Shown here one piece after another: positions 20,621-60,104 of a stretch of 64,000 nt of DNA. The number at the start of each line of letters is the position of its first letter. The first letter of the stretch is position 1. The stretch is taken from contig OX597827.1 in assembly GCA_951406725.2 (NCBI GenBank), positions 47,988,001 to 48,052,000 on the forward strand, given 5' to 3'. Source of the stretch: Octopus vulgaris (lineage: Eukaryota). A program made the translations under genes and the position numbers. The notes under the pieces are model-generated. The model saw nothing but the letters and a program-made list of their open reading frames with translations. It was not told the DNA's origin and made no database searches.

Positions 20621-21162
20621 ATGAAAAAATGTAAAATAATTAAAAAAAACAAAATTAAGTGGAATTGTAATTAAAAATTAAATTTAAGACGGAGACTGTA
20701 TGAGTGATTAATGATTATTTAGGAAGAAAATTCATGACTAAATAAAAATTAACAAGAATATTTTCTTAAATGTGGAAATTATAAATGTTCTTTTCTTGGT
20801 TTATAAAATGGTTTTAATTTATGAAAAACAAATATTTACATAAAATTGAAGGTACAATAATAGTTATTTTTATTGCAAAATTAGGTTAGTTAACGTGAGC
20901 CTTGTAATTGATGTCTTTGGGGTCTTGTTGTTTGTAAGTTTTGGTGAGCCATGGTTCAACCAACAACATGGTAAAAATCCCTGCCATTAATTTGGTGTGC
21001 ATGGGTATTATCAAATATTTCAATCATAACATATATTTAAATTAAGCATGAAAAAAATTGAAATAGTATCTTTCAGTATTTTATAAGGTAAAATCTTAAA
21101 TTATTAATCGACTCGTTATTAATTATCTTATAACAGCAATGCCTGGAAAATCCATGGATTAC

Positions 21163-21640
21163 ATAGAAAAATGTGAGCATGAAAAGTAATATTCTTAAGA
21201 TTATAAACCTGGAAAACTACAGGACAAGTTATTACGCCTGTAAAAATATAAGACTAACTATTACTTCAAGTAAAGTAAAGAATAAGAAACGTTTTACTTA
21301 AAATATTGCAGCTAAAATTAAAATTTGAATATTAGAAATTATTCTATTATATTTTACGAATAACACTATACTAATTTACTACCTTCAACACAGAAAAAAA
21401 TTACTAATTAGACAAACTTATAAATTAGCTGAACAGTTTTGTATAATTAATTTAAAAGAGGCTTAGTGTAAAGAGTGATAAATTAGAAGAGCTGGCCTTC
21501 TTTGCTGCAATATTTTAAGTAAAAAGTTTCTTACTCTTAACTTTGGTTGAATAGTTTGTCCTGTTCTTTTACAGGTGTAATAAACTTTTCCAAGTTTATT
21601 ATCTTAAGAATATTATTTTTCATGCTCGCATTTTTCCGTA
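21163..21640. mobile_element. MITE/foldback element with ~140-150-bp diverged terminal inverted repeats
   Basis: 21163-21312 (gaaaaatgtgagcatgaaaa...aaatattgcagc) is the approximate reverse complement of 21504-21640. Confidence 0.75.
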
Positions 21641-21672
21641 TAGTGTATGTATGTATATATATTATGTATATA

Positions 21673-21836
21673 GGCGCAGGTGTGTCTGTGTGGTAAGAGG
21701 CATGCTTCCCAACCACATGGTTTCCGTTCAGTCCCACTGCGTAGCACCTTACACAAGTGTCCTCTACTATAGCCTAGGGCCGACCCAAAGCCTTGCAAGT
21801 GGATATGGTAGACGGAAATTGGAAGAAGCCCGTCGT
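21673..21836 (+). mobile_element. Family A SINE head (its B module is displaced to 22478-22668 by a nested insertion)
   Basis: ggcgcaggtgtg...tggtaag...gtagacggaaa...gaagcccgtcg. Confidence 0.85.
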
Positions 21837-21847
21837 ATATATATATG

Positions 21848-22415
21848 TAAGAGGAACCGAGTTAGTAAATGTTTTTATTTTCATTTCACTAAATTTATCA
21901 AGCTTCTGTGTATCTAGTACATACTTCGCCCTTTAATGTACTTATATATGAATAATATATGGCCTGTGCTAGATCACCAGCGATAATAATTAATTTTATT
22001 TTATCGCACTTTGACTTTGTTTACATATTTCTCGATAAATTTTGAGCGTTAGACAATATACCAGAAATCCCTAGTTTGTCGGGTACGTTCTGCGTCTGTG
22101 CAGTGATCTGATTAGTTAGAGAGAGCAAATTATTAGACGCACATGCTTCTAGTGAGGTGCAATTTCACAATAACAGGGCTCTTACCGATGAATTCTCCCT
22201 GAGTAAATAAATTATTTTTATTACTGAAAAGAACGAAACTGCAGTCTAAGAGGAACCGAGTTAGTAAACGTTTTTATTTTCATTTCACTAAATTTATCAA
22301 GCTTCTGTGTATCTAGTACATACTTCGCCCTTTAATGTACATATATGAATAATATATGGCCTGTGCTAGATCACCAGCGATAATAATTAATTTTATTTTA
22401 TCGCACTTTGACTTT

Positions 22416-22420
<5 letters not shown>
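21848..22420 (+). mobile_element. Retrozyme-like non-coding element: 399-nt unit + 174-nt repeat of its start, in (TA)n
   Basis: 21848-22023 is repeated at 22247-22420; a hammerhead spans the unit junction; no ORF. Confidence 0.8.
22179..22252 (+). ncRNA. Type I hammerhead ribozyme (GUC site, predicted cleavage after 22246)
   Basis: CTCTTA-CCGATGA-a-TTCT..(agtaaataaa/tttattact hairpin)..AGAA-c-GAAA-CTGCAG-TC-TAAGAG: stem I CTCTTA/TAAGAG, palindromic stem III ACTGCAGT. Confidence 0.8.
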
Positions 22421-22462
<42 letters not shown>

Positions 22463-22477: not shown

Positions 22478-22668
22478 GTTTGCATTTGACAACACCTATC
22501 GCTTGACAATTTATGCTCGTATGTTTATGGCCTCGTAACTTGGCAGTTCGGAAAAATGTAAGCGATAGATTAAGTGCTTGGTCCATTTCTTTGACAAACA
22601 TCACTTAAGGCGGCGCTCCACAATGGCCGCAGTCAAATGACCGAAACCATTAAAAGATTTAAAAGAAT
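22478..22668 (+). mobile_element. Family B module, degenerate
   Basis: atcgcttgacaa...cgtaacttggcagttcgg...aaggcggcgctcca...gcagtcaaatgac. Confidence 0.7.
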
Positions 22669-23904: not shown

Positions 23905-25166
<1,262 letters not shown>

Positions 25167-57691: not shown

Positions 57692-58098
57692 CTCTTCACT
57701 TGTTTCAGTTATTTGACTGCGGCCATGCTGGAGCACTGCCTTTAATCGAGCAACTCGACCCCGGCACTTATTTTTTTATTTGTAAGCCCAGTACTTATTC
57801 TATCGGTCTCTTTTGCCGAACCGCTAAGTAACGGGGACAAAAACACACCAGCATCAGTTGTCAAGCAATGCTAGGGGGAGAAACACAGACACACAAACAC
57901 ACACATGCATATATATATATATATACATATATACGACGGGCTTCTTTTCAGTTTCTGTCTACCAAATCCACTCACAAGGCTTTGGTTGGCCCGAGGCTAT
58001 AGTAGAAGATACTTGCCCAAGGTGCCACGCAGTGGGACTGAACCCAGAACCATGTGGTTGGTAAACAAGCTACTTACCACACAGCCACTCCTGCACCT
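57692..58098 (-). mobile_element. Composite A+B SINE (duplicated at 59694-60102)
   Basis: Reverse complement of 11921-12321. Confidence 0.85.
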
Positions 58099-58100
58099 AC

Positions 58101-58253: not shown

Positions 58254-58686
58254 GTATATTTTTGTGTCAGTCTACCTATCAATTAGCCTGTCCGTCAGTC
58301 AATTCTCCCAGTATGCATATATATATATCAATACAAATGCACGCACAAAGATACATACACGCGCGCACAAACACAGACTCACTGGCACACAAACACACAC
58401 ACATGTCTTAGTATACAAACTAAAGAAGTAGTACTCAATATGTGGTTCGATTTGCATGTATTTAATAGTACTTTGGTTCACCTTCGCCACATACATATTT
58501 GCAAACATACATGCAAACAAAAATACTCCATTTTTGATGTTGAAATTCCGATGAAGGAGCCATGAATCTGAGTTAAAAACCGACATTTTCACTATTAGCA
58601 AGAAATATTAAAGTATAACTGAACAATGACATATATACATGCATAATTACATACATACATACATATCTACATACACATATACATAT

Positions 58687-59340: not shown

Positions 59341-60104
59341 TAGCATTAAAGACCCGTCGTTGCCGGGTCATAGTGCTAGTGCATGTATATATGTGTATAT
59401 ATATGTGTACATATTACATGTACATCTATATATATACATCTACACATAAAATACAAAATACAAAGTTTTATCTTGATATCGTTAGTGATAACAATACTCA
59501 AAATATATAACAGACTGGAATTGTTAGCCCGTCTCTTGTAATTTCGATCAATTGTATCTTGTCCTCCCTCTTGTATAGAAGTGTGGTACCATCCGACGGC
59601 TGCAGCGAAATTCATATTTGGACACACAGCGAAATTCATTTTTGGACACACAAAAACACATACACACATATGTATAACTACATATATATATATACTCTTC
59701 ACTTGTTTCAGTTATTTGACTGCGGCCATGCTGGAGCACTGCCTTTAATCGAGCAACTCGACCCCGGCACTTATTTGTTTATTTGTAAGCCCAGTACTTA
59801 TTCTATCGGTCTCTTTTGCCGAACCGCTAAGTAACGGGGACAAAAACACACCAGCATCAGTTGTCAAGCAATGCTAGGGGGACAAACACAGACACACAAA
59901 CACACACATGCATATATATATATATATATACATATATACGACGGGCTTCTTTTCAGTTTCTGTCTACCAAATCCACTCACAAGGCTTTGGTTGGCCCGAG
60001 GCTATAGTAGAAGACACTTGCCCAAGGTGCCACGCAGTGGGACTGAACCCAAACCATGTGGTTGGTAAACAAGCTACTTACCACACAGCCACTCCTGCAC
60101 CTAC

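Follow-up and report, generated by a model that had tools for sequence, protein, structure and literature searches.

Non-LTR retrozymes of animals are known to form RNA circles, and Penelope-like elements (PLEs) have been proposed to make their tandem cDNA; the mussel units measure 350–390 nt in the available part of the account (Cervera & de la Peña, 2020; PMC7229834). The idea of a circular template for the tandems of PLEs is found in the accessible text of an earlier paper (Cervera & de la Peña, 2014; PMC4209133). In a preprint, Li, Clavereau & Pollet (bioRxiv 10.64898/2026.07.22.740005) make the case that PLEs gave rise to retrozymes; the portion available deals with 31 vertebrates, three insects and one coral, with no mollusc among them, and gives pLTR homology in 24 of 57 frog retrozyme families (10.64898/2026.07.22.740005).

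According to the available sections of Craig et al. (2021; PMC8557442), the layout of PLEs comprises 5' truncation, partial tandems, (TA)n targets and inverted 5' pieces. In vitro work on PAc, an anole PLE, demonstrated that reverse transcription can start internally, downstream of the hammerhead (Frangieh et al., 2024; PMC11167929); the substrate there was mainly unprocessed RNA, and the start site lacked homology to the target (PMC11167929). For cephalopods, the squid genome paper lists 235 Hammerhead_1 hits, in its available part without analysis (PMC6962438).

The retrozyme class and its link to PLEs are thus already in print, and the locus described here is itself ordinary. In the literature searched, neither this family nor 5'-end mapping for a retrozyme was found; subscription papers, supplements or repeat databases such as Repbase and Dfam may already contain it.

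A 399-nt tandem insertion that splits a host repeat

The window, a stretch of 64 000 nt from Octopus vulgaris (contig OX597827.1, positions 47 988 001 to 48 052 000), lies in a 2.8 Gb, microsatellite-rich assembly. It contains one full 399-nt unit on the forward strand (21848–22246), followed by a partial second unit comprising unit positions 1–176 (22247–22420, forward strand). Comparison within the window gave 98% identity between 22247–22420 and the unit's first ~175 nt, which bears out the arrangement described in the initial annotation. The partial unit bears the fixed 3' end of the family, where reverse transcription presumably started, and the insertion is truncated at its 5' end, at a point that is ambiguous over the first 2 nt, these being TA in both host and element. 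The unit has a GC content of 0.34 (below 50%) and, when circularised, a longest ATG-started frame of 28 codons and a longest stop-free stretch of 47. Of the (TA)n tracts said to flank the insertion, the downstream one is a (TA)20 tract (22419–22458, unstranded), the target at the 3' junction, and the upstream one is short, reading (TA)5G.

The insertion splits an abundant host repeat, which we take to be SINE-like, at an internal TA tract. The upstream half (21670–21847, forward strand) ends ...CGTCGTATATATATATG and has 63 matches in the window and its flanks; the downstream half (22486–22665, forward strand) has 42. Pairing of upstream and downstream halves (24 pairings) revealed the empty site of the host repeat, which reads ...CGTCGTATATATG (also given as ...GAAGCCCGTCGTATATATG) joined directly to TATATATA. 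As the empty sites carry the G that precedes 21848, this base belongs to the host. The TA at 21848–21849 fits host and element equally, so the breakpoint lies at unit position 1, 2 or 3. The insertion had been said to start exactly at its own ribozyme cut site; position 21848 does read TAAGAGGAACC, but the exact assignment to position 1 was not sustained. A target-site duplication is not resolvable inside (TA)n.

Other repeats were observed in the window. Near-identical intact copies of the host repeat lie at 57700–58100 and 59700–60100, ~2 kb apart, and look part of a local duplication, with matching microsatellites at 58625/60629 and 59382/61340. A MITE-like element (21150–21652) just upstream of the host repeat has long imperfect terminal inverted repeats, with arms at 21150–21216 and 21586–21652 that are 84% complementary. 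A (TA)n tract at 23907–25124 (~1.2 kb, 611 copies) is unusually long even in this genome.

A dispersed family with a fixed 3' end

A search of the genome with the unit gave 697 first-look candidates, the best 40 of which were scored, yielding 115 matches. Genome-wide there were 159 matches to one exact motif and 211 to another. Insertions were resolved from the first 100 listed matches of each exact motif together with the matches of the unit search, and at least 126 distinct insertions were obtained from 165 loci, which excludes a single-copy locus. The unit is 397–401 nt long across the family. The 3' end falls at alignment positions 176–181, ~175 nt past the ribozyme cut, in 120 of the 126 insertions, and the 3' flank is a TA repeat in 122. 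The 5' ends are distributed all round the unit and insertion lengths run from ~50 to 2604 nt; arrays reach 6.5 units (2604 nt), and most insertions are dispersed short runs. Overlapping units within an array differ by 0.2–1.2%, depending on the subfamily, and the insertions are therefore young. An LTR-body-LTR structure was found in none of the 126.

Spread at the DNA level without an RNA step, as a satellite or a solo pseudo-LTR, would account for the tandem form and for the local duplication in some arrays. Dispersal over many contigs, a polar structure in which one end is fixed and the other varies, insertion into TA tracts and the cleanly split host repeat all argue against it, as does the finding that no long PLE-type frame adjoins the 5' end in any of the 126 insertions whose flanks were examined, and we consider it barely credible. 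These data support the assignment of the window copy to the non-LTR retrozyme-like elements and of the family to the known class of animal retrozymes. The preferred reading, to which we give a probability of roughly 0.78, is a non-autonomous non-LTR retrozyme family (397–401-nt unit, three ribozyme subtypes) spread by a PLE enzyme. Spread by a PLE is proposed because the layout is PLE-like, with 5' truncation, partial tandems, (TA)n targets and inverted 5' pieces, the last in one of the 126 insertions and in several more copies of a sister family.

Short duplicated or rearranged pieces of the element were observed at the 5' junctions of L074, L093, L073, L035 and L097, as from template switching in second-strand joining. 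A more abundant variant, suggested by sequencing run X14, was rejected, since its pattern gave just one match.

The hammerhead at the locus and across the family

A type I hammerhead spans the unit junction (22179–22252, forward strand). It matches Rfam RF00163 (Hammerhead_1) at 29.3 bits (E 5.9e-5), a score below the gathering score of 34, and a scan of the whole window at the gathering threshold gave no hits. Stem I is formed by CTCTTA (22179–22184) and TAAGAG (22247–22252), the core by CCGATGA (22185–22191) and GAAA (22235–22238). The palindrome ACTGCAGT lies at 22238–22245, stem III consists of 2 bp (palindrome ACUGCAGU), and the GTC triplet ends at 22246, after which the cut is predicted. 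The ribozyme was thus correctly placed by the initial annotation, which did not mention that its core is a variant: U4 is replaced by C, and stem II opens with an A·C mismatch, A10.1·C11.1 (22192/22234), at its first pair.

The minimum-energy fold of the region is not the hammerhead (z 0.69), and forcing the hammerhead costs 2.8 kcal/mol. By folding energies only, the palindrome duplex has −11.1 kcal/mol and the monomer hammerhead fold lies 2.8–6.2 kcal/mol above the minimum. One base was added to the reference unit of the GUA subtype to align it, and its folds accordingly display GUC where real copies have GUA. Hammerheads with a short palindromic stem III work as dimers, as set out in the available text of PMC4209133, and U4C is reported to reduce in vitro activity considerably in the accessible part of PMC3088659. 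Li et al. (2026) class a retrozyme as 'active' if it has at least two consecutive complete hammerheads; the window locus has a single complete ribozyme, and pairs are present in other arrays of the family, for example L020, L011 and L027. With one complete ribozyme only, the locus would be unable to release a unit-length RNA itself.

Across the family 116 hammerheads were recovered, with the cores CUGAAGA (45 copies), CUGAYGA (12) and CCGAUGA (59). The three ribozyme subtypes are the window type with U4C and A·C, a CUGAAGA/GUC type (as in L027) and a GUA type (as in L004). The canonical CUGANGA core is thus found in 57 of the 116 and U4C in 59, and 62 hammerhead copies carry the A·C mismatch. 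Covariation was assessed on 142 hammerheads of two families, these 116 and 26 from the sister family. Pairs 1–5 of stem I are kept in 135–141 of the 142, with A-U/G-C and U-A/C-G swaps, and pairs 2–4 of stem II in 135–139, with U-A/C-G swaps; pair 1 of stem II is kept in only 76, because 62 copies carry A·C. The stem III palindrome is maintained in this set at two lengths, 8 and 10 nt. The search pattern requires the core, and these figures count copies rather than independent events. The covariation check suggested in the initial annotation came out in favour of the ribozyme, with compensatory changes in stems I and II across the 142 hammerheads; the core, canonical or U4C, is conserved in the 116. 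Judged by these alignments the ribozyme is real at the level of the family, and the claim of a multicopy, non-coding, tandem type I hammerhead family holds, with its at least 126 insertions. The core of half the family would be expected to cut slowly.

A search of the genome with RF00163 gave six hits, in unrelated families, none of them linked to the unit. These six hammerheads, above the Rfam cut-off, lie in other repeat families (L166–L171); L167, L168 and L171 have a long loop II in common, and L167 is accompanied by an inverted copy.

The 5' ends and the ribozyme cut site

The 5' end of the window copy had been read as a genomic footprint of in vivo cleavage, the copy being reverse-transcribed up to a 5' end that the upstream hammerhead had generated, with the downstream one left uncut. 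Stop rates were determined on the 114 insertions that an exact motif anchors within the contig range listed; this set matched 101 and 101 motif copies against 100 listed each, the contig-range rule adding one extra apiece. Twelve insertions known only from the best-hit ranking, the window copy included, were excluded because ranking by whole-unit match favours starts near position 1, and they are covered by the genome-wide counts. Five of the twelve, the window copy among them, start between positions 392 and 5. The many starts near position 1 that the best-hit list had suggested were rejected on the same ground.

In the 114 anchored insertions the stop rate was 3.1 per 1000 nt. Unit position 2 was reached by 126 passes and position 399 by 124; one pass ended at position 1, and two at positions 1–3, against 1.15 expected. 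Genome-wide, the intact cut junction was crossed into the upstream ribozyme at 140 of 159 marker sites. A TA-type flank abutted position 1 in six rows, made up of four true starts (window included), one start at 397 and one probable point variant of the intact junction; this pattern misses starts with flanks of other composition. Starts at the cut therefore number four in 159 marker sites (2.6%, 95% interval 0.7–6.5%), against 1.4–1.7 expected (P 0.05–0.10). Read by subfamily, the cut site was crossed in 57 of 58 canonical-core passes and in all 67 U4C passes. Of the 114 anchored 5' ends, 46 fall at TA, which makes up 11% of the exposure; as biology this enrichment was rejected, since end calling against a TA flank can alone give up to threefold.

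The histogram of 5' ends, which had been suggested as a check, has no pile-up at position 1, and the ends are essentially random, an outcome named beforehand as speaking against the footprint. A slight genome-wide surplus at the cut and a fifth copy that starts there without an exact marker (L159) could be counted for it. The anchored sample, however, has no excess, other TA sites in the unit take 2–5% of passes, the first TA is common to host and element, and canonical and variant subfamilies behave alike at the cut. The footprint of cleavage is thus an improbable account of this copy, whose start at the cut site looks like chance, and the copy is no evidence of in vivo ribozyme activity. The 95% interval leaves room for a small contribution of cleaved RNAs (0.7–6.5% of passes).

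A Penelope-like element and a shared putative priming patch

A PLE fragment in one flank led to a young PLE family, for which a search gave 14131 candidates, the best 150 scored being 97–100% identical. The fragment alone gave no Pfam families. An open frame of 1214 codons (L204:2749–6393, minus strand) encodes RT, a linker and GIY-YIG; RVT_1 is above the cut-off (E 1.1e-7) and GIY-YIG is weak, below the cut-off (E 0.0056), and between them lies the linker CSRPRCRTC (CxxxxCxxC). From the order of RT, CX2-5CxxC linker and GIY-YIG, the element is a candidate Neptune-type PLE. Its loci (L202–L210 and L172–L201) are very young and abundant, with intact frames of 1000–1200 codons. The PLE copies form 4.5-kb partial tandems with a fixed 3' end in (TA)n, and a minimal-hammerhead-like motif, present in 4668 exact copies, lies ~100 nt upstream of that end; its core reads CUGUUGA (A6 to U).

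When the unit was compared with 39 loci of this one PLE family, no significant DNA match was found save for a retrozyme copy inside one locus. It is therefore from layout only that a PLE partner is proposed.

The internal patch GTTTACATATT (22019–22029, forward strand) sits where insertions end, and is a putative priming site to which a nicked (TA)n target could anneal. At most termini of the retrozyme it is replaced by GTTTATATATA; the sequence at the corresponding position is GTTATATATT inside the PLE, where the 3' end of that element falls, and GTT(C/T)ACATATT in the sister family. The UA-rich patch found in all three leads us to propose that the nicked target primes by base-pairing with it. 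In L157, L065, L035, L007 and L071 the terminus still carries the patch's C (GTTTACA...), and priming can apparently begin a few bases further 3'.

The sister retrozyme family (L003:1873–2245, minus strand, and L212–L241) has a unit of ~440–460 nt, ~68% alike to the present unit over the aligned part; its search gave 1166 first-look candidates, the best 40 of which were scored. Its hammerhead carries the pair A10.1-U11.1, one additional A ahead of GAAA and a palindrome of 10 nt, and its putative 3' priming position is the same. A second 3' end or a 30–40-nt tail was not seen in the insertions of the 399-nt family.

In the mechanism that we propose, tandem arrays would be transcribed, and paired hammerheads, acting through the palindromic stem III, would excise a unit RNA that is then ligated to a circle. 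The endonuclease of the PLE would nick a (TA)n tract, and the nicked DNA end may anneal to the UA-rich patch at unit positions 175–181 and prime reverse transcription. The enzyme would circle the template and stop at random, with a mean run of ~325 nt, and the window copy would represent one run of 1.44 turns that stopped by chance at positions 1–3.

Circular or multimeric template

All 138 pattern-matched junctions are without an indel, and the template was therefore continuous across the cut. Tandems built by jumps of the reverse transcriptase between cut linear monomers would also have their junctions at the cut, by construction, and the short duplications and deletions at some 5' ends (L074, L093, L073) indicate that switching occurs. 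One would expect such jumps to be neither efficient nor precise, however, and with ~98% of passes crossing the junction and not one indel among those matched, this route is very unlikely.

A circular RNA is the template that we slightly favour. A circle would explain both a conserved ribozyme that leaves no cut ends and the recovery of length despite truncation. It also fits the variants within arrays: 31 private variants occur in every overlapping unit of their array, a further 112 being unit-specific, and of the 69 differences seen within arrays just one turns up again in another array. The stop rate is roughly constant, at 2.5–4.1 per 1000 nt, up to 1.4 kb.

A serious alternative, to which we give about one chance in three, is a linear multimer that arises by transcription of tandem arrays, stays uncut and is inserted by the same PLE-driven process, with a hammerhead that cuts rarely or acts elsewhere and with array length restored by duplication at the DNA level. 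Hammerhead mutants left insertion unaffected and unprocessed RNA was dominant in the PLE studied in vitro (PMC11167929), one of nine frog retrozyme dimers was cleaved in the available part of Li et al. (2026), and the U4C (59/116) and A·C (62 copies) subfamilies have spread equally, U4C being a change that lowers in vitro activity according to the accessible text of PMC3088659. Signs of local duplication are likewise seen in L020 and L011, in which private substitutions are common to paired or non-adjacent units, suggesting duplication or conversion after insertion; pairs of units with private changes in common in the longest arrays point to later duplication at the DNA level. One L020 unit has, in addition, a 26-nt deletion that removes the priming patch. 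A linear lineage would, however, be shortened by 5' truncation at each round, yet arrays reach 6.5 units; the canonical-core subfamilies have no extra stops at the cut, though their ribozyme is conserved by compensatory change; and unit-order variants do not recur (1/69), a weak test if the source arrays are young.

Array distances and folding speak, if anything, against the circle. The nearest-neighbour distance between 37 arrays, 1.9 differences, equals the within-array distance of 1.9, although as a test of the arrays this did not discriminate. The circular folds of five units gave z −0.8 to −1.3 against 40 shuffles, no more stable than these, and are not highly self-paired. The joint of 22246 to 21848 is present in contigs of four of four public sequencing runs, which is no evidence, since tandem DNA yields it too.

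A fuller reading has three parts, and as a whole we hold it tentatively, at somewhat less than even odds. Firstly, a Neptune-type PLE may act by rolling-circle, target-primed reverse transcription, with telomerase-like pairing of (TA)n to the UA patch common to two retrozyme families and a PLE. Secondly, the enzyme may read through the ligated ribozyme site at ~98% per turn. Thirdly, half the family spreads equally well with a doubly substituted core, which may mean that a slowly cutting ribozyme does no harm or even protects the circle.

Comparison with known systems

The mode of movement of animal retrozymes is a point that the papers cited here leave open, and it is constrained by the fixed internal start, the random stops and the clean read-through of the ribozyme site reported here. 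Ribozymes with canonical and with variant cores are available in this genome, together with an intact candidate enzyme. If the rolling-circle reading is true, the family preserves in the genome the outcome of target-primed reverse transcription on rolling circles, and the circle model of 2014/2020 becomes directly testable with enzyme and substrate from one genome.

The family resembles the metazoan non-LTR retrozymes, as described in the available part of PMC7229834, in its non-coding, AT-rich tandem unit within the 150–450-nt range, in a type I hammerhead with a 6-bp stem I and a short palindromic stem III, and in the PLE mobilisation from circular RNA, giving tandem cDNA, that was proposed there. 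It differs from them, on the same portion of that paper, in being mostly dispersed as short runs in (TA)n rather than in long arrays, and in having a long loop II and, in half of its copies, a variant core. Whereas the circles of that account are 'highly self-paired', the circle predicted here is not unusually so.

With the retrozymes of Li et al. (2026), as far as the preprint is available, the family has in common its co-occurrence with PLEs and its monomer, dimer and multimer copies; unlike there, no PLE homology was found here, one PLE family having been compared. Fixed 3' ends and 5' truncation points, unmapped in the available text of that preprint, are mapped here.

Partial tandems, 5' truncation, an occasional inverted 5' piece and (TA)n targets are features in common with Neptune-type PLEs and PAc, as is a hammerhead upstream of the internal start of reverse transcription. 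In contrast to PLEs, the unit has no ORF, its hammerhead is full-size where the PLE type is minimal, and in the family one start of reverse transcription and no 30–40-nt tail were seen. The start in PAc lies at a site not homologous to its target, whereas that of the octopus family carries a target-like TA patch.
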